Below the pieces are notes generated by a model. That model worked only from the letters and a program-made list of their open reading frames with translations, had not been told where the DNA came from and searched no databases. A program made the position numbers and the translations under genes. From assembly GCF_900167395.1 (NCBI RefSeq), contig NZ_FUWK01000060.1:1-10231 (forward strand): a stretch of DNA of 10,231 nucleotides, written 5' to 3'. The DNA comes from Nitrosomonas europaea (GTDB lineage Bacteria > Pseudomonadota > Gammaproteobacteria > Burkholderiales > Nitrosomonadaceae). Positions 1 to 10,231 of the stretch are shown piece by piece (the stretch's first letter is position 1; every line of letters starts with the position of its first letter).

Positions 1-1
1 C

Positions 2-274
2 GAACATTCCAAAACGAAAGCCAATCATCCGCAGACCAACGGTATTTGCGAACGCTTTCACAAAACCATCTTGCAGGAGTTCTACCAGGTGACATTCCGG
101 CGCAAGATTTACCAGTCCATTGAAGAGTTACAACACGATCTGGATGATTGGATGGCGTACTACAACAGTGTGCGGACTCACCAGGGAAAAATGTGCTGTG
201 GACGCACCCCGATGCAAACTTTAATTGACGCAAAGGAGATATGGGACGATAAAATTACCGAATTGAATAACTGA
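2..274 (+). CDS. DDE transposase (integrase-core/rve superfamily), C-terminal fragment. The 5' end is outside the window.
   Basis: Frame 2 is open from the window edge and reads EHSKTKANHPQTNGICERFHKTILQEFYQVTFRRKIYQSIEELQHDLDDWMAYYNSVRTHQGKMCCGRTPMQTL, with a TGA stop at 272-274. HPQTNG-x-x-ERFH followed by YN-x-x-R-x-HQ is the conserved C-terminal signature of rve-type IS transposases. The TTG at 71 in the ORF track is not the real start. Confidence 0.88.
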   Translation, partial: EHSKTKANHPQTNGICERFHKTILQEFYQVTFRRKIYQSIEELQHDLDDWMAYYNSVRTHQGKMCCGRTPMQTLIDAKEIWDDKITELNN

Positions 275-322
275 ATCTGATCTAACAGGCACTCGTCAAA
301 TCGGGTAACTGTCAGATCAGAT
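275..322. repeat. Subterminal inverted repeat (hairpin) inside the IS, just after the transposase stop codon.
   Basis: ATCTGATCTAACAG (275-288) pairs with CTGTCAGATCAGAT (309-322), 13 of 14 complementary with a 20-nt loop. The mirror image is present in copy B at about 10046-10093. Confidence 0.5.
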
Positions 323-330
323 CTCAACTA

Positions 331-1254
331 CTACATATAACCTGATGCCCCAACAAACACATCAAAAGCGCGAAAATAGCGAACCAGGGGATATACCGAA
401 ACCGGCTGCACACCCTCAGGTAGTACAACATCTTTAATGGATATGGGATTATTCGCCCAGACAACTTCAAAGCCTGCCTGTTGTAACTGCTGTATCAGAC
501 CCTCCCCGATATTTTCGACATCGTTGATATTACCGGCTCCCAGGGAAAACAAAGCGTAACGTCCGTTCTCACTCAATCCCATCGCCCTTCTGGCCTGTAC
601 CCTATCCAGCAACTCCTCTTCCCTCAATAGACAAACGGGTGGAACACGTACCTGCGGGCAGTCGAAATCACTCTCCTCCCAGCCAGATTCATCACCCGCC
701 TCACCCGGCTTGATAATCAGGCTGAACATATTCTTCTGATGCGGAAATGATTTAGCCTTATCTGCCTGGTGCAAACCCCGATGCGACCAGACAATCTTTG
801 CCTTGCCATATTCTCTACAGGCATTAATAAATCCCTGATATGGCCAGGTACCATCAAAGACAATGACTGACGGACGAACATGCTCCAGTATCAGGCCAAG
901 GCGAAAACACAATTCACGATTCCAGTCTGCGGAACTTGTACGAGACCAGTTGGGCGAAACGAAGTAATCTGCTGGAAAACCCATTTCCTCGATAATTTCG
1001 ATCGCTGAAGCCAGCGAAAAAAACATGATCTCGACCTGACCCTGCAACTGACGTGCATAAGACAAACAACGGGATAAATGACCCATGCCGGCACCATTTG
1101 TGCAGACAAACAGGATAGTTGGCAACTTTACAAACTCCGGATAAAGCAGCATGCCAAATGCATGACTGCCAGATTGAAAAACAATTTCGGAGTTATACCA
1201 TAAGCAAATTTTCTGGGTATTTCGATAGACCGAGAAAGGCAATACAGATAACAC
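331..1254 (-). pseudogene. GT-B fold glycosyltransferase (MurG/GT28-like or COG4671-like), 3'-truncated by the IS insertion.
   Basis: The N-terminal loop ILFVCTNGAGMGHLSRCLSYARQL matches the G-x-G-H-x-x-R motif of MurG/PseG/COG4671-type GT-B enzymes. The ORF ends AFDVFVGASGYM*. The TG of the Met codon and the TAG stop (331-333) lie inside the IS terminus (TGTAG). The break falls in the conserved GYN(S/T)-x-x-E nucleotide-sugar-binding motif, so the rest of the C-terminal domain is missing. The start is ambiguous: GTG at 1254 has AAGGTG 10 nt upstream, while ATG at 1152 would leave a more typical short N-terminus (MLLYPEFVKLPTILF...). Confidence 0.72.
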
Positions 1255-2922: not shown

Positions 2923-5900
2923 TTACTGGCTGCTGACAGTATCTCCAGCCGCATCAGGCAAACGCCTTGTGATCAGTCTGCGCAAGCCGGTTCGAATGCG
3001 CTGGAATATACCGACATTCTCAGATTCTTCCACAACGTGGTCGAGTGCCAGTATTGCCTGCAACACACGCTCGCAGCATTGGCCGTCACGCCAGGCGAAA
3101 GTATTATGCATGCGTTTCGCATATTCATCAGAGGGCTGACAATCGCGTGCCAGCAAGTCTGCCATGGCAGTCAACACTTCCTGCTTTTCCGTGCACACCG
3201 GACCAAAACCGTCGCGGCGATAATCAAAATAGCCTTTCTGATACGAGTGAGCCCCAGAGAAAAATTCTTCTTCATCAAACTGCCAATAAACCACCGGGCG
3301 CTTGAGATAGGCCATTTCAAATGCAACGGAGGAGTAGTCGGTAATCAGCAATGCTGCTCGCTGGAAAAGTGTCTGAATACTGCCATCCATGTGTGACAAC
3401 ACCTCAATGCCGGCCGGCAAGTTGAACTGATCAAGATAAGATTGTATGTTGGCATGAGGAAAAAAGACTATCCGGTAACCCCGCTGTTGCGCCAATGCCA
3501 TAAGAGCCGGCTCAGACAGCAAACCTCCCCATGAGCGCGCGTAGAGCGTATCCATAAAGCCCTCACGCATGATACGCTCACTGCTCTTATCAATTAATTC
3601 ACCAAGTAAGTATTTACGCCAGGTAGGCATGATTAGAATCAATTTTTCTTTCTGCCCAGTACCCTGCAATAGGGCATCATGACGCGGGAAACCCGTAAGG
3701 ATGACTTCCTTGGAAGTGAATTTATACCGATTACCATCCTCGGCAAATGAGACCTGTTCAATTGGTGAAGCAGTTACAAGCAAATCGATACGTCTACTAT
3801 TCAACCAACGCGATAAGTCATCTTTGGTGACACCATGCTGCAAAAAAATAAATTGACGTCGCTTGATACCGCCATCAATGAAAGGGTCGACCACATAAGG
3901 AGCGGCTTGAGAGCTCACCATCCTGGTACATTCTTGCATCGCCAGCCGGTGTTCTGCACTACCAAAAGCAATCAATTGAAACCCTTCTGCCTGCAGGCGT
4001 GGCCAGTCATGCGATTCTTCACGTAACAGGAAATAAACAGGCAGTTGCGGCATAGCGCGACACACATAACGGTACAGATGCTCGGCGTTGTCATCCGCCT
4101 GCGTATCCCGGTCCATAAACAGCCAGGCGCCGGCATATTTCCCCTCGCGCACAGGCTGAAGCGCAGAAAAATGTTCGCGGATCGCCTGCACATCAATTGT
4201 TTTCCCCACCTGTTTGCCACCCATGGAAATACGCGCTGCTACATTATCCAGCCGTACTTCCAGTTTCCCTTTTTGGCTCAGCGGCAGCCAGACCCTGCGA
4301 TCCTGTACAAAAGTACGCTCAAGAAAATCATGCGCAGTGATTTTTTCAAATGCCGGCGCAACAATTTTTTGATTAACAATAAATTCCTCAGCAGGTTGTT
4401 CGCCATGGAAATAACGCAACAGTACCTGCTGCCTGGCCCAATCGAAACTTTCTACATAGACGATCTGGAAGGGAGGTTTTAATTGCTTGAATGCGGAAAG
4501 TATTCCGACTTTGTGAAAAAACCAGCAGCCAGCCAGCTCAAATTCCACAATGGTATCCGTTGTAATAACGGAAAACAGCTTATCCAAGTGAGCAAGAAAG
4601 CGCCCTTTTTGAGAAGGTGCAAGAAATGCAACTGTTTCCGAACGATTTACGATTTTTCTTAAATACCAGACAAGATCATAAAGTACGGTACGTTGTACAT
4701 ATTTTGGAACATTGTAGCCTCGTGCAATATAAGCATCAAACAATGCCTGATAACTGTAAATCATCACCTCATCAAAGCGTTCTTCTTTTTGCCAACTGAT
4801 ATCAAGCATAGAATTGGCTTCCGTAAAATTCCGATAGTAATAACGTGGCGCAACCAGAAAAGCCACTTGCTTGCTTTTAAGTGGCTGAAGATAACAGCCG
4901 ACAAAATGGCCATCCTCAAAATTGGGTTTGATCCGCTCATCAAATAACCGGCTTTGTTCTCGCAGTAAAGACAGCCTGAAAAAAGCAGAATTAACTGTTA
5001 ACTGCAGGTGTTTCTCCAGATCATCTGCAGCAAAAATACGATCACCTTTGGCAAACCGGTACTTTAATGGGTGGGTATCGCTGAAGCTGTCCTGATTTTC
5101 CCGATAAAAAATAAAATTGCATGAAAGCAGTGCTAATTTTTCAGCTGTCTTTTTGGCGGCTTGCTGTGCCAGGAAATCATCCACTTTCTGAAAATAATCG
5201 GGAGCGACGAAATCATCGGGATCAATAAAGGTCACCCATTCAGTATGTGCCTGTTGCAACCCCAAATTACGTGCACTGGCCTGACCCCCATTTTCTTTAT
5301 GCAAATACAGGATATTTTCCGGGTAACTTGCCTGCCAACGCCGGATAATATCTGCTGAATGATCAGTAGAACCATCATCTACCATGATCAGGTAAATATG
5401 GGAACGGAAATCCAGTGTCTGGCACGTCATCGAGTAGAAGAAATCATCCAGATAGGCGGCTACGTTATAAACAGCTGAAACAACTGTGTATTTTTCATGA
5501 CCCGCTGTATTGCCGGTTTTGCCAAGATCGGTAATCTGTTTATCAAACAACCTTAACCATCGGTTGCAGGGATCGGCTTTCAGCCCCTCATAAAAACCGA
5601 TTTCCACGTAATGCAGCAGCGGGTTGAGATCGGTTTCCAAAATTTCCGGATGTTGTTCCAGATAACGTGATGTATCAAAAAAAGGGCCAGGGTTTTTCCC
5701 CTCAGCGGCTCCATGATAAAAATAGTGATCAACCGGGTCTGCCCCGCTCTCCCTAACCTCAGGATATTGGGTAAAGTACCAGGCGGCATCAAACCAGCTG
5801 CATTGCCGCAAAACCCGGATGACCTTTTCAGCAGGATATTGTTTCAATTTTTCCAGTTCCCGGCCTGGCTCGCGCGCCAGTTTCGCTTCTTTTTGTAATC

Positions 5901-6945: not shown

Positions 6946-7262
6946 ACTCATTAAATTCATTGGTTCCAGTCTTGATGATCTGAAAAATTTTCCGGAAGAA
7001 GCTCGCAAAGCAGTCGGATTCGAGCTTTTCGCGGTACAGAGGAGGGCTGATGCCATCTGATTTCAAACCAATGCTTGCCGTTGGGCCGGGGGCTTACGAG
7101 ATCAGGATTCACATAATGGGTGAGTGGCGCGTAATTTACGTGGCAAAAATGCAGGACACAATATATGTCCTGCATACATTTCAGAAGAAAACACAGAAAA
7201 CCAGCAAGCACGATCGTTATAGGCAAATCATAAAGGAGATAACCAATGGAAAAAATAACTGA
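6941..7262 (+). pseudogene. HigB/RelE-superfamily toxin of the phage Gp49-like (DUF891) type, frameshifted and lacking a canonical start codon.
   Basis: The N-terminal half, IKLIKFIGSSLDDLKNFPEEARKAVGFELFAVQR, is in frame 2 and hits TGA at 7058-7060. The C-terminal half, GLMPSDFKPMLAVGPGAYEIRIHIMGEWRVIYVAKMQDTIYVLHTFQKKTQKTSKHD, is in frame 0, which is closed upstream by TGA at 6981-6983. Removing one base near 7040-7043 (in cagAGGAGGGctg) joins them into the family consensus ...AVQRGLMPSDFKPM.... There is no ATG, GTG or TTG where the family start (MK..F.GSS) is expected. The codon at that position is ATC (6941), and the nearest in-frame TTG is at 6914. Confidence 0.62.
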
Positions 7263-7524
7263 CTCCAGCGGAAATATATTTACTGACCTGGGATTCAACC
7301 CGGAGCAATCAGCTATCTATACCCTGCGAGCAGAATTGATGAGCAATTTGCGCAAAACGATCCGGGAACGTAAATGGACTCAGGAAGAAGCTGCCAAAGT
7401 GCTTAACATTGGACAATCCCGCGTATCCGATCTGATGCGTGGCAAATGGGAAAAATTCAGCCTGGATATGCTCATCACTCTGGCGATCCGGGTCGGCAAA
7501 CGGATTGGGATTACTGTTGTATAG
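7246..7524 (+). CDS. higA: HigA-like XRE-family helix-turn-helix antitoxin (full-length copy).
   Basis: This is a 92-aa ORF. AAGGAG (7233-7238) lies 7 nt before the ATG, and the gene overlaps the toxin reading frame by 17 nt. The HTH core WTQEEAAKVLNIGQSRVSDLMRGKWEKFSLDMLITLA and the N-terminal SGNIFTDLGF match antitoxins paired with Gp49-type toxins. Confidence 0.85.
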   Translation: MEKITDSSGNIFTDLGFNPEQSAIYTLRAELMSNLRKTIRERKWTQEEAAKVLNIGQSRVSDLMRGKWEKFSLDMLITLAIRVGKRIGITVV

Positions 7525-7551
7525 GGAATTAGTACACAAGCTAAAAACAAA
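7283..7551. repeat. Direct repeat copy 1 (269 bp), covering higA codon 13 to 27 nt past the stop codon.
   Basis: It matches 8500-8768 at an offset of 1217 bp, with one mismatch found (G 7359 versus A 8576, synonymous ACG/ACA). Identity breaks at 7282/8499 and at 7552/8769. Confidence 0.95.
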
Positions 7552-7554
7552 ATA

Positions 7555-7959
7555 TCAAGCAAAGGGATTTTGAATTAGAAGCCGATCATCAATTATTTGG
7601 CTGTTCTGCATATCTTCTGAATAAAGGATCGTGCAATCAGCCGATAATGCTGCGGCGATGATCAATGCATCATATATCGAAAATCCATAGTGTTCCGCTA
7701 TCCGGAGCCCTTGATCATGTACTTCGACAGTAACCGGCACTACGGAACATATCATGCGTATGTGTGAAAGAAATTCCTGGATTTCAGCAAAGGACATGTT
7801 CAGTTTCCTCCGGGCCACACTTGCGAATTCATTGAGCACCTGAACACTGATAAAGCCGCCAGCTGCAATAGTGTTTTCCGCCCGAACAGATTTTGTTTCA
7901 TCTTCGGATAAAAGATACAGCAGGATATTCGTATCCAGAAAAGCACTATGATCTTTCAT
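7555..7959 (-). CDS. vapC: PIN-domain ribonuclease toxin (VapC-type).
   Basis: The sequence MKDHSAFLDTNILLYLL...QVLNEFASV...IYDALIIAAAL...LYSEDMQ carries the four acidic PIN residues in the usual order and spacing. The ATG at 7959 overlaps the vapB stop by 14 nt. The longer GTG start at 8004 would overlap vapB by 59 nt and is disfavoured. Confidence 0.85.
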   Translation of the reverse strand: MKDHSAFLDTNILLYLLSEDETKSVRAENTIAAGGFISVQVLNEFASVARRKLNMSFAEIQEFLSHIRMICSVVPVTVEVHDQGLRIAEHYGFSIYDALIIAAALSADCTILYSEDMQNSQIIDDRLLIQNPFA

Positions 7960-8179
7960 GCGCTTCAAGGCGATCAAATTTGAAGTCTTTCGGTAATCGC
8001 CCACGGTATTTTCTCAGTCGTTCAAGGATTTCACGGGCTTCCGGTGTTTTCATGATTTCAATGTCACGGGCACCTGCCACGTGAATTTCAATAGAATCAC
8101 CTTCCTTGAGATCAAGTATTTCAACAACTGATGCGGGTAATCTGACTGCCAGACTGTTGCCCCATTTTGAAACCTGCAT
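7946..8179 (-). CDS. vapB: AbrB/MazE/SpoVT-fold antitoxin (VapB-type).
   Basis: This is a 77-aa ORF. MQVSKWGNSLAVRLPASVVEILDLKEGDSIEI is the classic SpoVT/AbrB swapped-hairpin N-terminus. GGGAGA lies 8 nt upstream of the ATG at 8179, and the gene sits immediately upstream of the PIN gene and overlaps it. Confidence 0.86.
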   Translation of the reverse strand: MQVSKWGNSLAVRLPASVVEILDLKEGDSIEIHVAGARDIEIMKTPEAREILERLRKYRGRLPKDFKFDRLEAHERS

Positions 8180-8390: not shown

Positions 8391-8741
8391 GTGGATCGGG
8401 TCAAACTACTGACGATGTTGCGTGACCGAATATCGCGGGAACTGGTCAGTATTGAAACTAAAAAGCAGGGATTCATTGCATTCACCCCAACCTACCAGGC
8501 TGACCTGGGATTCAACCCGGAGCAATCAGCTATCTATACCCTGCGAGCAGAATTGATGAGCAATTTGCGCAAAACAATCCGGGAACGTAAATGGACTCAG
8601 GAAGAAGCTGCCAAAGTGCTTAACATTGGACAATCCCGCGTATCCGATCTGATGCGTGGCAAATGGGAAAAATTCAGCCTGGATATGCTCATCACTCTGG
8701 CGATCCGGGTCGGCAAACGGATTGGGATTACTGTTGTATAG
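8391..8741 (+). CDS. Second HigA-like XRE HTH reading frame: a duplicated 3' portion fused to unrelated 5' sequence (chimera, possibly not expressed).
   Basis: From DLGFNPEQSAIY onward the protein is identical to 7246-7524. The first 36 codons (GTG 8391, or ATG 8415) are unrelated (…RISRELVSIETKKQGFIAFTPTYQA). There is no Shine-Dalgarno sequence before either start and no adjacent toxin gene. Confidence 0.45.
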   Translation: MDRVKLLTMLRDRISRELVSIETKKQGFIAFTPTYQADLGFNPEQSAIYTLRAELMSNLRKTIRERKWTQEEAAKVLNIGQSRVSDLMRGKWEKFSLDMLITLAIRVGKRIGITVV

Positions 8742-8768
8742 GGAATTAGTACACAAGCTAAAAACAAA
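8500..8768. repeat. Direct repeat copy 2 (269 bp).
   Basis: See copy 1. I count 268 of 269 identical by eye, supported by the identical + strand translations and a single R/C difference in the antisense ORF translations. Confidence 0.95.
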
Positions 8769-8841
8769 GTATAAAAAGATCGCCGGGAAAGGCGAAAACC
8801 AAAAGGATAAAACGCTGCCATGGCACCTGGAAACCGACCAG

Positions 8842-8870
8842 TTGACTAACCGGCATCCAAACCATAAAGT
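8842..8870 (+). promoter_or_regulatory. Candidate sigma70 promoter for the AbrB-type antitoxin / PIN toxin operon.
   Basis: TTGACT (8842-8847), a 17-nt spacer, then TAAAGT (8865-8870), lying 32 nt upstream of the antitoxin ATG. This is a motif-only prediction. Confidence 0.3.
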
Positions 8871-8901
8871 AAGGATTCCTTACATTGACGAGGTGTTCGA
8901 T

Positions 8902-9144
8902 ATGCTTGCAAAAATGACAGCAAAAAATCAGTTGACCCTGCCCAAGAGCGTAACAACAGCTGTTGGTGCCGGTGAGTATTTTGAAATAGAGGTACGTAAC
9001 GGACAAATAGTACTGACGCCGGTACGCATTCAGCGAGCCGATGCAGTGCGCGCCAAGCTGGCAGAGTTGGATCTGGGTGAACGAGATATTATGGATGCTG
9101 TTACCTGGGCGCGCCAACCGGTAAAAGGATCGGCAACTGAATGA
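8902..9144 (+). CDS. AbrB/MazE/SpoVT-family antitoxin.
   Basis: GAGG (8890-8893) lies 8 nt before the ATG at 8902. The sequence MLAKMTAKNQLTLPKSVTTAVGAGEYFEIEVRNGQIVLTPV matches the SpoVT/AbrB DNA-binding fold pattern. The 162-aa ORF in the track is an upstream extension that runs through the repeat and is not credible. Confidence 0.8.
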   Translation: MLAKMTAKNQLTLPKSVTTAVGAGEYFEIEVRNGQIVLTPVRIQRADAVRAKLAELDLGERDIMDAVTWARQPVKGSATE

Positions 9145-9145
9145 A

Positions 9146-9379
9146 CCTAAAAACCGCAGTTGATCGCTGATCAGCCCCTGGAAACCCTGATGGGTAGTGA
9201 GCTTGCTGCTTTCACTCATGCCAACCCGACGGGTGAGGCCGCTACGTACCCGATTACACGCCTGGCACGCTGTCTGGCTGCGTTGCTCCTCGTTGCAGGG
9301 AATAACCATGCGCCTCGTCGCGCCTTGCCAGGCAGTGCGCCAGACGCACACTCGGATACGTCCAACCGCGGTTTTTAGG
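9146..9379. mobile_element. MITE-like non-autonomous element (234 bp) inserted between the antitoxin and toxin genes.
   Basis: The terminal inverted repeats are CCTAAAAACCGCAGTTG (9146-9162) and CAACCGCGGTTTTTAGG (9363-9379), 16 of 17 complementary. A direct ATGAA duplication flanks them (9141-9145 and 9380-9384). Precise in-silico excision recreates an ATGA stop/start overlap. The element has no credible ORF, and an internal imperfect inverted repeat lies at 9261-9278 / 9327-9344 (14 of 18). Confidence 0.72.
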
Positions 9380-9817
9380 ATGAAAATGAGCAAAGCCGTC
9401 AGCCGGGTGGTATTGGATACAAATCTGGTGTTGTCGGCGCTGGTATTCCAGAGTAGCCGCCTCACACCCTTACGAAATTTATGGCAAACGGGACGAATCC
9501 ATCCTTTGATCTCTCGGGAAACTGCTGCAGAGTTGATTCGTGCTCTGACTTACCCCAAGTTCAAGCTCACTGCGAGCGAACAGGAAGAATTACTGGCAGA
9601 TTATCTGCCTTATTGTTTAACGGCTATCATTCCCAACCCTCCTCCCGTAACACCACCCTGCCGTGATCAGGCGGATATACCGTTTCTGCAATTGGCCTTG
9701 GCTGGCAAAGCAGATGTACTGGTCACTGGAGATAAGGATTTGCTGGTGCTGGCAGGAATGTTCGATTGCCGGATCCTGGCCGCTGACGTTTTTTTAACTG
9801 AGTTTGCAGGTTGTTGA
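9380..9817 (+). CDS. PIN-domain toxin of the PIN_3 / TIGR00305-like type.
   Basis: The sequence MKMSKAVSRVVLDTNLVLSALVF...ISRETAAELIRALTYPKF...CRDQADIPFLQLALAGKADVLVTGDKDLL matches the PIN_3 pattern (VLDTN, E, D-x-x-FL-x-LA, LVTGDKDL). The ATG at 9380 is the ancestral start inferred from the duplicated ATGAA. The second ATG at 9386 has AGGA 5 nt upstream and may be the start used now. The 206-aa track ORF extends back through the inserted element and is rejected. Confidence 0.82.
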   Translation: MKMSKAVSRVVLDTNLVLSALVFQSSRLTPLRNLWQTGRIHPLISRETAAELIRALTYPKFKLTASEQEELLADYLPYCLTAIIPNPPPVTPPCRDQADIPFLQLALAGKADVLVTGDKDLLVLAGMFDCRILAADVFLTEFAGC

Positions 9818-9957
9818 AAATATACTCTCCCCTCTCACGCCAGCGGAAGAGGGAAGCAGAACAAAGCAGAAACAAGATTGAAATAACCTCCTTTCTTATT
9901 TTGACTCACAGGGGAATCCCCACGATTCCAACTAGAAGAAAAACGATCTAGGATTAG

Positions 9958-9983
9958 ATAACAAAAGGCCCGCAGGAGCGGGC
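9958..9983 (-). terminator. Rho-independent terminator oriented for minus-strand transcription, possibly weakly bidirectional.
   Basis: GCCCGC (9968-9973), loop AGGA, then GCGGGC (9978-9983). On the minus strand the hairpin is followed by CTTTTGTTAT. On the plus strand it is followed only by TGGCGTTTG. Confidence 0.5.
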
Positions 9984-10032
9984 TGGCGTTTGAAGTAGGA
10001 AGGGTTACAACTGCGGCCTATGGAAATTTATT

Positions 10033-10231
10033 TGTAGTAGTTGAGATCTGATCTGACAGTTACCCGATTTGACGAGTGCCTGTTAGATCAGATTCAGTTA
10101 TTCAATTCGGTAATTTTATCGTCCCATATCTCCTTTGCGTCAATTAAAGTTTGCATCGGGGTGCGTCCACAGCACATTTTTCCCTGGTGAGTCCGCACAC
10201 TGTTGTAGTACGCCATCCAATCATCCAGATC
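10033..10231 (-). mobile_element. Insertion sequence copy B, right-hand end only, inverted relative to copy A.
   Basis: It is the reverse complement of 137-335, with no mismatch found by eye. It begins TGTAGTAGTTGAGATC at 10033. Confidence 0.9.
10094..10231 (-). CDS. DDE (rve) transposase, C-terminal fragment of copy B. The 5' end is outside the window.
   Basis: It is the mirror of 137-274. The stop codon TGA is the reverse complement of 10094-10096, and the frame is open to the window edge. Confidence 0.88.
   Translation of the reverse strand, partial: DLDDWMAYYNSVRTHQGKMCCGRTPMQTLIDAKEIWDDKITELNN

Follow-up and report, generated by a model that had tools for sequence, protein, structure and literature searches.

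A BOX element lies upstream of the pneumococcal yefM-yoeB toxin-antitoxin (TA) operon and adds a promoter to it. The Correia (NEMIS) elements of Neisseria and the ERIC elements of enterobacteria are miniature transposable elements (MITEs) that lie between genes, are co-transcribed and form long RNA hairpins. How they affect the processing and stability of mRNA depends on which way round they lie. Among the insertion sequences (ISs), members of the IS1380 family typically produce target-site duplications (TSDs) of 4-5 bp (ISfinder). The bcr1 elements of the Bacillus cereus group are about 155 bp long, are flanked by 5-bp direct repeats, vary between strains and keep their RNA structure by compensatory changes (PMC3184786).

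Here we describe a MITE within a type II TA operon in a 10,231-nt stretch of Nitrosomonas europaea DNA (the window, meaning this whole stretch). Like BOX at yefM-yoeB, it is a small repeat at a type II TA operon whose expression signals it would alter. However, BOX lies upstream, whereas the present element lies between antitoxin and toxin, in their stop/start overlap. The intergenic location, the presumed co-transcription and the long RNA hairpin are shared with Correia and ERIC, but the termini, the duplication (TA for Correia) and the parent IS families differ; moreover, the mRNA effects of those elements are established experimentally, whereas for the present family they are predicted. It has in common with bcr1 small size, the non-autonomous state, 5-bp flanking repeats, variability between strains and an RNA structure maintained by compensatory change. 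On the other hand, the host phylum and the sequence are different, and the data on strand asymmetry and on orientation bias concern the present family alone. To our knowledge, bcr1 has not been described as having ends of the IS1380 type.

The antitoxin and toxin genes of the window are both intact and lie 235 nt apart (Table 1). The toxin belongs to the PIN domain proteins (Pfam PIN_3, 76.4 bits; NCBIfam TIGR00305, 60.9 bits at a cutoff of 29.15), whereas the antitoxin scores below the family cutoffs, with 17.8 bits for Pfam MazE_antitoxin (cutoff 24.7) and 20.1 bits for the NCBIfam AbrB domain (cutoff 28.3). The identical 80-aa antitoxin is encoded on at least 24 contigs. Metagenome contigs in which both antitoxin and toxin are 100% identical to those of the window exist in two states, empty and filled. 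The filled state, represented by 11 loci, contains the 234-bp element and the duplicated ATGAA, the element copies at this locus being 99.1-100% identical. The empty state was observed at six loci on five contigs (L001 and L012 on the same contig, L006, L008, L009 and L010). There the two genes are adjacent and co-directional, with a 4-nt ATGA overlap, and the junction reads ...ACTGAATGAAAATGAGC.... Thus the ATGA junction that the first-pass annotation had obtained by deleting the spacer in silico exists in natural alleles of the same TA pair. Indeed, the empty loci can be aligned without gaps to the window devoid of positions 9146-9384 (L006, 1193 nt, 99.25% identity; L012, 1153 nt, 99.48%). 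These uninterrupted versions of the locus prove that the 234-bp element is an insertion.

Table 1. Features of the TA locus and of the inserted element (positions in the window)
Feature	Position	Strand	Comment
Antitoxin gene, AbrB/MazE-like	8902-9144	+	80 aa; stop codon TGA 9142-9144 lies within the left TSD copy
Left TSD copy, ATGAA	9141-9145		single ATGAA in empty alleles; matches the family target consensus WTNAW
MITE	9146-9379	+	234 bp; "plus" orientation, IRL-like end on the left; missing from empty alleles
Left terminal inverted repeat (TIR)	9146-9162	+	CCTAAAAACCGCAGTTG; same as the end of the IS1380-family ISs in L037 and L093
Internal ORF	9190-9378	+	62 codons; ATG 9190, stop TAG 9376-9378 in the right TIR; 72 codons from TTG 9160
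Degenerate sub-terminal box	9222-9236		CAACC CGACG GGTGA; 2 mismatches to TCACC-N5-GGTGA
Long internal hairpin	9244-9361	-	covariation-conserved; best on the minus strand; contains the repeat 9261-9278/9327-9344
Right TIR	9363-9379	-	reads CAACCGCGGTTTTTAGG on the plus strand
Right TSD copy, ATGAA	9380-9384		provides the toxin start codon ATG 9380-9382
PIN-domain toxin gene	9380-9817	+	145 aa; 143 aa if the start is ATG 9386

Both states occur at flank identity of 99.2-99.7%, and the direction of the event is not polarised by these data. One possibility is that the filled state is ancestral and gave rise to the empty alleles, either through precise excision or through recombination of the two ATGAA copies, in which case the insertion would not be recent. 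However, the empty junction is the ATGA overlap canonical for type II TA operons. Besides, the element occurs in multiple copies with a different TSD at each locus, and it is insertion that makes such structures; we consider an ancestral filled state highly improbable. Whichever the direction, insertion or excision, the element is mobile DNA. The reading that we prefer, and consider very probably correct, is that a MITE with the ends of IS1380-family ISs was inserted into the ATGAA in which the stop codon of the antitoxin gene overlaps the start codon of the toxin gene.

The 9146-9379 region is a real MITE insertion. It is 234 bp long and contains no transposase gene, its sole ORF having 62-72 codons. 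Re-reading of the sequence confirmed all coordinates assigned earlier to the TIRs, the TSDs, and the stop and start codons, including two occurrences of ATGAA and the second in-frame ATG at 9386. A repeat search of the window gave TIR arms of 17 nt, 94% complementary (16/17) and separated by 200 nt. No other TIR sites with up to three mismatches occur in the window; the chance expectation is 0.04, and none of 200 shuffled sequences reached two sites. The body is richer in GC than its surroundings, as had been noted, with 59.8% compared with 47.7-48.6% on either side and 46.5% over the whole window. The second inverted repeat is also real, and forms a part of the longer hairpin. The element is unrelated to the ISs at the ends of the window, which belong to the IS481 family. 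Finally, whichever strand is taken, it folds far better than shuffled sequences (z = -5.2 and -6.8). The view of the first-pass annotation that a MITE-like element occupies the ATGA overlap is thus supported by empty alleles, by a multi-copy family, by TSDs belonging to each copy and by folding.

The family is large and widespread in Beta- and Gammaproteobacteria. It comprises 90 distinct TIR-bounded copies with conserved termini and 234 bp as the commonest length. Copies residing at other loci show 75-97% identity. A scan of the subfamily yielded 21 distinct insertion sites, the nearest copy beyond the TA locus being 97.0% identical; a scan of a genome collection yielded at least 120 matching stretches, with about 35 expected by our own estimate. 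At least three further copies occur in assembly GCA_964442505.1, and a copy is present on at least eight contigs of metagenome Ga0206106. The host contigs have GC content of 44-50%. Neither the terminal sequence of the element nor an IS1380-related MITE of such kind was found in a search confined to published papers, and the family is apparently undescribed and unnamed.

Perfect 5-bp TSDs flank 54 of the 90 copies, whereas 7.2 are obtained for shuffled pairings of flanks. As anticipated for a transposable element, the duplications differ between unrelated loci. TTTAA is found between norQ and norD, TTGAA within a siderophore operon and ATGAT within a TA island, and there are dozens of other such loci; in all, 17 different duplicated sequences were observed. 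The second position is T and the fourth position is A in all 54 cases, giving the target consensus WTNAW. Since the target always contains TNA, insertions lie at gene boundaries, with both stop and start codons regenerated. At the TA locus, the ATGAA target covers the end of the antitoxin gene together with the start codon of the toxin gene, and its duplication rebuilt TGA on the left and ATG on the right; thus both genes remained intact.

The element ends CCTARAAACCGCAGTTG, the 5-bp TSD and the TCACC-N5-GGTGA box at nt 77 match full-length elements of the IS1380 family, including ISEcp1. The left TIR coincides at 17 of 17 nucleotides with one end of the ISs in L037 (Methylosinus sp. Sm6) and L093, and at 15 of 17 with the right end of the IS (CCTAGAAACGGCAGTTA) from a plasmid of Polaromonas sp. 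P1-6 (CP087967.1, 343357-344986). The termini of ISEcp1 are CCTAGA/CCTAAA, and CCTAGA is common to ISEcp1 and the left TIR. The duplications of the full-length ISs are also 5 bp long, TTAAA in Polaromonas and GTGAA in L093. ISEcp1 produces 5-bp duplications as well, TATGA being one reported sequence (PMC2887853). The box occupies nt 77 in 38 of the 46 MITE copies, nt 76 in ISEcp1, nt 77 in the Polaromonas IS and nt 87-88 in the ISs of L037 and L093. There is exactly one match to the box in each 1.6-kb IS, and 73 matches in 1.17 Mb of fetched loci, compared with 1.1 expected. This conserved box may be a cis element for IS1380-family transposition.

The transposases of the full-length ISs have NF033539, the IS1380 family, as the best match (L037, 516 aa, E = 5.1e-45; L156 from Polaromonas, 510 aa, E = 1.6e-45), and the Polaromonas protein also matches Pfam DDE_Tnp_1_4 with 86.5 bits (cutoff 34.7). 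Their NF033539 scores, 153.8 and 155.5 bits, cover nearly the full profile but stay below the curated IS1380 cutoff of 180 bits. Thus the MITE resembles ISEcp1, the Polaromonas IS and the Methylosinus IS in the CCTAGA/CCTAAA termini, the 5-bp TSD and the box 76-88 nt from the left end. It differs from them in having 234 bp, no transposase and a dissimilar interior, which is a long covarying hairpin (the hairpin comparison covered the MITE copies alone). Shuffle tests detected no significant similarity of the MITE interior to the ISs beyond the ends and the box. An origin by simple internal deletion of one of the found ISs was considered and rejected, as the interior alignments had z = 0.7-0.8, apart from a single alignment that reached z = 3.0, and only the termini, the box and the spacing are common. 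The first-pass annotation had called the mobilising transposase unknown. The shared ends, TSD and box identify its likely type, the IS1380 family; neither the window nor contigs of the same organism yielded an autonomous element of this family.

The internal hairpin consists of 45 pairs and displays strong covariation, at least two types of canonical pairs being observed at 38 of the 45 positions. The strands were compared using alignment A1 and its reverse complement. On the minus strand 91.2% of pairs are canonical, compared with 70.6 +/- 0.6% in shuffled alignments and 27-43% after sliding of the partner. On this strand, which is antisense to the TA operon here, G-U strongly prevails over A-C (223 and 21), and it is only there that G-U is tolerated; for a structure built on the plus strand the two are about equally frequent (141 G-U, 150 A-C). 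In 45 of the 46 copies the RNA of the minus strand is the more stable one, the mean difference being 18.5 kcal/mol. These observations could mean that the hairpin has a function, as RNA or as single-stranded DNA, when read from the minus strand. It might, for example, serve in RNA processing or stabilisation, or be required in cis for transposition; the MITE would then be its vehicle, and here it would act antisense to the TA operon. However, a consensus scan of 9146-9379 revealed no promoter or terminator, and there is no space for a promoter upstream of the hairpin inside the element. Rfam has no match in the window (E <= 1) or in eight loci with typical copies (E <= 0.1). In most operon copies it is the other strand that is present in mRNA. 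Further, the structure was derived from the same sequences that were used to score it, and bcr1 already provides an example of compensatory change in the hairpin of a MITE (PMC3184786). We consider a functional role of the hairpin possible, but less likely than not.

Of 16 copies lying between co-directional neighbours, 14 have the sense orientation; if both neighbours are required to be verified, the count is 12 against one. For these counts, genes were called as the longest ORFs with the element masked, and the neighbours were then checked against Pfam; the longest-ORF caller was wrong on one flank of L024 compared with the official gene calls. A count based on every ORF of 100 aa or more was abandoned, since in genomes rich in GC it was dominated by shadow ORFs. 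This bias in orientation, like the strand specificity of the hairpin, suggests that selection acts on the behaviour of the element inside transcripts.

The internal ORF had been dismissed earlier as not credible. In fact, it is present and is called by gene callers, but its variation is not coding-like. An ORF of at least 55 aa is retained in 42 of the 46 copies, with a conserved ATG at nt 45, and runs to the right TIR. The entropies of the three codon positions are 0.69, 0.875 and 0.80, so that position 2 is the most variable and there is no codon periodicity. The ORF has no match in Pfam. Its homologues are limited to 14 clusters (58-126 aa); contigs were fetched for seven of these, and each of the seven is another copy of the element. 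Hence a conventional small protein was rejected. Two further candidates were also discarded. One was a strong ribosome-binding site before the internal ATG: the Shine-Dalgarno signal is weak, with a mean of -2.8 kcal/mol and -4 or better in 24% of copies. The other was a symmetrical mini-ORF on the minus strand ending at the TAG of the opposite TIR, which is kept in only 13 of the 46 copies.

It could be, nevertheless, that the family is adapted to operons: ribosomes translating the 62-codon ORF would be handed to the downstream start, which would restore coupling and prevent polarity. The preservation of the plus-strand ORF and the rarity of its minus-strand equivalent agree with this, as do the sense orientation and the frequent downstream starts 1-6 nt from the element end. 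The window reads UAG-G-AUG, the stop of the ORF being one base inside the right end. Open frames were observed in 23 of 25 copies, compared with 17 +/- 1.9 expected from a column-shuffle test, in which relatedness among the copies is ignored. On the other hand, the Shine-Dalgarno signal is weak, and codon periodicity is lacking, although an open frame alone would suffice for such a relay. Copies with a broken ORF are as frequent beside downstream genes as elsewhere. Finally, the spacing and the reading frame of the internal ATG and the box are the same as in the N-terminus of the transposase in the ISs of L037 and L093, so that vestigial origin explains the ATG. Thus a ribosome relay seems unlikely. 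The same low credence is given to the broader suggestion that the MITE is specialised for gene boundaries within operons and is translationally "transparent" owing to the stop triplet in WTNAW, the sense bias, the weaker hairpin in mRNA and the relay. By its shared spacing and frame, the internal ORF is probably a vestigial start of the transposase rather than a gene.

The following scheme can be proposed for the inserted MITE. A DDE transposase of the IS1380 family, acting in trans, would recognise the 17-bp termini, and probably the TCACC-N5-GGTGA box also, and insert the element at a WTNAW target, generating the 5-bp duplication. Translation of the toxin would become uncoupled from termination on the antitoxin gene. 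The predicted fold of the operon mRNA keeps the TIR stem, which would abut the start codon of the toxin gene, and with such a stem the synthesis of toxin should fall relative to that of antitoxin. A lower toxin/antitoxin ratio would be harmless for a TA module, and this would explain the persistence of the insertion. The first-pass annotation had suggested that AGGA, formed by the right end of the element and the duplicated A, may now serve translation of the toxin. The coordinates are correct, but AGGA lies within the predicted TIR stem and may be sequestered rather than helpful. The start at ATG 9386, giving the 143-aa toxin, is the one chosen by gene callers in several filled contigs.

The TA locus is a natural experiment on translational coupling, as the same proteins are encoded with or without a 239-nt spacer (the 234-bp element and the second ATGAA). 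Since the TA proteins are identical in the two states, the effect of the element on the toxin/antitoxin ratio is directly measurable. If the suggestion of a "transparent" transposon is true, this locus with its filled and empty alleles is a ready test case. The 62-72-codon ORF is routinely annotated as a hypothetical protein, and recognition of the family would delete many spurious calls. More generally, these data tie a widespread family of MITEs from Beta- and Gammaproteobacteria to the IS1380 family, whose member ISEcp1 mobilises blaCTX-M genes, and highlight a conserved sub-terminal box, about 76 nt from the left end, that may act in transposition.

The 234-bp element is a genuine MITE insertion in the stop/start overlap of the PIN/AbrB-type TA operon. 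Re-reading of positions 8700-10231 and an ORF listing confirmed all coordinates of the first-pass annotation, and a repeat search of the window recovered its terminal inverted repeats (TIRs) as 17-nt arms, 94% complementary. With up to three mismatches allowed, the terminus occurs at only two sites in the window, with 0.04 expected by chance. The element is, as had been noted, more GC-rich (59.8%) than its flanks (47.7-48.6%) and the window (46.5%). The toxin belongs clearly to PIN_3 / TIGR00305; the antitoxin scores with the AbrB/MazE models are below the cutoffs of those models.

Features of the toxin-antitoxin region, further MITE copies and related insertion sequences
Feature	Position or context	Properties	Duplication
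Antitoxin ORF	8902-9144	80 aa; stop TGA 9142-9144	
PIN toxin ORF	start ATG 9380	second in-frame ATG 9386	
234-bp element	9146-9379	starts CCTAAAAACCGCAGTTG, finishes CAACCGCGGTTTTTAGG	ATGAA, 9141-9145 and 9380-9384
HigA-like antitoxin, copy 1	7246-7524	after Gp49/HigB-like toxin gene 7050-7262	
HigA-like antitoxin, copy 2	8391-8741	different 5' end, without toxin partner	
Second PIN/MazE-type pair (VapBC-like)	7555-8179, minus strand	PIN toxin 59.3 bits, MazE_antitoxin 51.5 bits	
MITE copy L020	GCA_964442505.1, between norQ and norD	88.5% identical, perfect 17-bp TIR	TTTAA
MITE copy L021	GCA_964442505.1, upstream of TonB-dependent receptor	right end decayed	
MITE copy L023	GCA_964442505.1, near phosphate transporter	internally deleted	
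MITE copy, other contig	siderophore operon		TTGAA
MITE copy, other contig	TA island		ATGAT
IS L093 (second copy L099)	alphaproteobacterial MAG	1674 bp; ends CCTAAAAACCGCAGTTG / CCTAAATACCGCAGTTG	GTGAA
IS L037	Methylosinus sp. Sm6	1674 bp; one end identical to MITE terminus over 17 nt	
IS L156	Polaromonas sp. P1-6 plasmid	~1.63 kb; ends CCTATTTTCGGCAGTTAGC / CCTAGAAACGGCAGTTAGC	TTAAA

Metagenome contigs carrying the TA pair were gathered by exact-protein look-up of the toxin and antitoxin, and the allele state was read between 21-nt anchors on either side of the junction. Both states were found. In the empty contigs (L001/L012, L006, L008, L009, L010) the anchors are separated by four bases (TGAA), and the junction reads ...ACTGAATGAAAATGAGC..., the toxin ATG overlapping the antitoxin TGA. 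The filled contigs (L002, L004, L007, L011, L013-L019) have 243 bases, that is, the element and the second ATGAA. The window without positions 9146-9384 aligns to the empty contigs without gaps at 99.2-99.7% identity (L006, 1193 nt with 9 mismatches; L012, 1153 nt with 6 mismatches). Thus the deletion made in silico in the first-pass annotation is a real allele, and empty-site orthologues with the direct ATGA junction do exist. The toxin protein is identical in the two states, and the element copies at this locus differ by 0-2 bases among the filled contigs; this points to a recent event. That the toxin ORF is intact and unchanged is compatible with such a recent event as well as with continued expression.

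The element is a member of a widespread family. The translation of its internal ORF was used as a probe, since gene callers often call this ORF; it yielded 14 protein clusters, and all seven that were fetched were further copies. At least three reside in the assembly GCA_964442505.1, and the predicted copies with different 5-bp duplications were found there and elsewhere (see the table). A scan with CCTARAAACCRCRGTTGRNYG, one genome per species, gave at least 120 stretches, about 35 being expected by chance by our estimate. Among the matches listed almost all are from Beta- and Gammaproteobacteria, including Thiobacillus, Rhodocyclaceae, Gallionella, Rhodoferax, Polaromonas, Accumulibacter, Candidatus Thiodiazotropha, Microbulbifer and Nitrosomonas sp. 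Nm33. Scanning metagenomes with a 21-mer from the core, specific to the subfamily of the window, gave 28 stretches with 21 distinct flank pairs, at least eight contigs coming from one sample. The closest copies beyond the TA locus are 97.0% (L158) and 92.3% (L180) identical. No description of a family with such IS1380-type ends was found in the searchable literature.

All fetched loci together contain 90 distinct TIR-bounded elements, 49 of them 233-237 bp long, with smaller classes of 163, 145 and 289-291 bp. Judged from L108, L142 and L147, the 291-bp class corresponds to the 234-bp element plus ~57 nt inserted into the hairpin. The 163-bp class in Gammaproteobacteria (L081, L090, L092, L119, L125, L144, L146) retains the termini and the sub-terminal box described below around an unrelated AT-rich interior, and is far more stable on one strand (about -95 vs -69 kcal/mol). 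In Nitrosomonas sp. Nm33 there is a remnant of ~40 bp (L050, 7405-7440), in which a left terminus runs immediately into a degenerate right one (CCTAAAAACCGCAGTTGATCGCTGCGGTGTTAAAAACAGG). Over the first 24 nt it is identical to the window copy, and it may represent a footprint or a product of extreme deletion.

The 5-bp duplication is perfect in 54 of the 90 elements and matches at four of five positions in another 20, whereas shuffled flank pairings produce on average 7.2 perfect duplications (maximum 17). All 54 have T at position 2 and A at position 4; over 90% have A or T at positions 1 and 5, and position 3 varies freely with a preference for G. This gives the consensus WTNAW, and therefore every target contains TGA or TAA on one or the other strand. 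Such sites cluster at the ends of genes in GC-rich genomes. A natural target is the ATGA(A) overlap of a TA operon, the duplication restoring both the stop and the start codon.

Termini beginning with CC and an AT-rich 5-bp duplication suggested the IS1380 family as the parent, and this was put to the test. Full-length insertion sequences sharing the MITE terminus, as sought in the first-pass annotation, were found (L093, L037), and their transposases match NF033539, the IS1380-family profile. That of L093 is frameshifted, the halves matching profile positions 9-216 and 215-418. That of L037 is intact (516 aa; 153.8 bits, E = 5.1e-45, positions 19-418 of 419). The L156 transposase (510 aa) scores 155.5 bits with the same profile and 86.5 bits with Pfam DDE_Tnp_1_4; 360 bp downstream of this Polaromonas IS there is a MITE copy of 234 bp. 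As the L037 and L156 scores are under the NCBI cutoff of 180 bits, these transposases are probably divergent family members. The flanks of the L037 IS, TTCAT (4145-4149) and ATGAA (5823-5827), are mutual reverse complements and not a direct repeat, which could reflect an extension of the inverted repeats or a rearrangement between two copies. The ends of ISEcp1 from a Klebsiella plasmid are CCTAGATTCTACGT and CCTAAATTCCACGT; this element is reported to make 5-bp duplications (PMC2887853).

The strongest link of the MITE to the IS1380 family is a sub-terminal palindromic box, TCACC-N5-GGTGA. It starts at nt 77 in 34 of 46 MITE copies and at nt 75-78 in 38 (at most one mismatch); in the window copy it is degenerate (9222-9236). 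It starts at nt 76 in ISEcp1 (L185, 504-522), at nt 77 in the Polaromonas IS (L156, ~1466-1480; nt 76 of a slice starting one base inside), and, counted from the left end, at nt 87-88 in the IS of L037 and L093. Each IS examined has exactly one match, and 1.17 Mb of fetched DNA contain 73 vs 1.1 expected. Every IS1380-family element examined, ISEcp1 included, has the box 76-88 nt from the left end. We know of no described function for it; it could be a binding site of the transposase or a host factor. Outside the termini and the box, local alignments of the MITE interior with these IS are not significant.

Of 46 aligned copies, 42 keep open a frame of at least 55 codons that begins with a conserved ATG at nt 45 and reaches the right TIR, so the statement that the element has no credible ORF holds only insofar as this ORF does not behave as a conventional gene. 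Variability peaks at codon position 2 (entropies 0.69, 0.875 and 0.80), the Shine-Dalgarno match is weak, and there is no match in Pfam. Open frames, 23 of 25 vs 17 +/- 1.9 in column shuffles, are in modest excess, the shuffles ignoring the relatedness of copies. The IS of L037 and L093 have their transposase ATG 30 nt upstream of the box, and the box is read there in the frame it has in the MITE (H-x-x-G-E). Most simply, then, the internal ATG of the MITE would be a vestigial transposase start. One minus-strand frame of the element is stop-free in many family members, and in the window a 235-codon minus-strand ORF (8758-9465) crosses the element from end to end as well as the antitoxin gene, apparently as a shadow frame and not as a gene.

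RNAalifold analysis of 46 copies predicts, besides the TIR stem, a long internal hairpin rich in compensatory pairs; the reverse-complement alignment folds into a more stable consensus. On the minus strand the 45 hairpin pairs are 91.2% canonical, vs 70.6 +/- 0.6% with shuffled and 27-43% with slid partners, and 38 of them have at least two canonical pair types. Minus-strand G-U pairs outnumber A-C (223 vs 21), the plus strand being the mirror image, and the plus-strand-derived structure has no such bias (141 vs 150). In 45 of 46 copies the minus-strand RNA has the greater stability, the mean difference being 18.5 kcal/mol. Therefore the pairing is constrained on the strand antisense to the TA operon. 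Folding the window copy itself, as had been proposed, gave z = -6.8 for the minus and -5.2 for the plus strand. No promoter was predicted in the element, and it has no Rfam match. A sub-threshold Rfam match to Ysr141 at L105 4251-4509 (52 bits vs gathering score 196, E = 3.8e-11) is outside the element. Compensatory maintenance of MITE hairpins is already known from bcr1 (PMC3184786).

For the count of orientations within operons, the element was masked and genes were defined as the longest ORFs that do not overlap. Between co-directional genes the plus strand is sense in 14 copies and antisense in two. With both neighbours verified by Pfam or the collection's own gene calls, the counts are 12 and 1 (two-sided binomial p ~0.003); examples are aat-ate (Microbulbifer), bamE-dapB and hslR-grpE. 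The upstream stop and downstream start are typically 1-12 nt from the element ends, the window included. The sense mRNA carries the weaker version of the hairpin and an open frame ending with UAG one base before the duplicated start (UAG-G-AUG in the window). The pattern fits selection against the very stable antisense hairpin inside transcripts. It is also compatible with a translational relay, in which the open frame ends just before the downstream start. This reading is attractive, but the support for it is weak and we consider it improbable.

The TIRs had been described as unlike those of the IS at the window ends; indeed, the latter belongs to the IS481 family and is unrelated to the MITE. 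Two inverted IS481 copies bracket the window (1-340 and 10028-10231) and share a 204-nt repeat, 100% identical (137-340 / 10028-10231); the transposase C-terminus matches NF033577 (E = 5.8e-24). Their 3' ends face a 9.7-kb segment of glycosyltransferase and TA genes, and hence the layout is composite-transposon-like. Each window end contains a 48-nt near-palindrome (275-322 and 10046-10093). A small island of three TA modules adjoins the polysaccharide-synthesis genes. A 276-bp direct repeat, 99% identical (7283-7558 / 8500-8775), contains most of an HTH_37 (HigA-like) antitoxin gene, which is thereby present twice. The same TA cassettes occur in other orders on related contigs, which suggests that they are shuffled by recombination.

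The predicted fold of positions 9100-9420 includes the TIR stem, which borders directly on the toxin AUG. The AGGA suggested as a new ribosome-binding site is inside this predicted stem and so may be sequestered. At the filled locus, coupling of toxin translation to antitoxin termination would be lost. The likeliest outcome would be lower toxin translation, which would be harmless to the cell.
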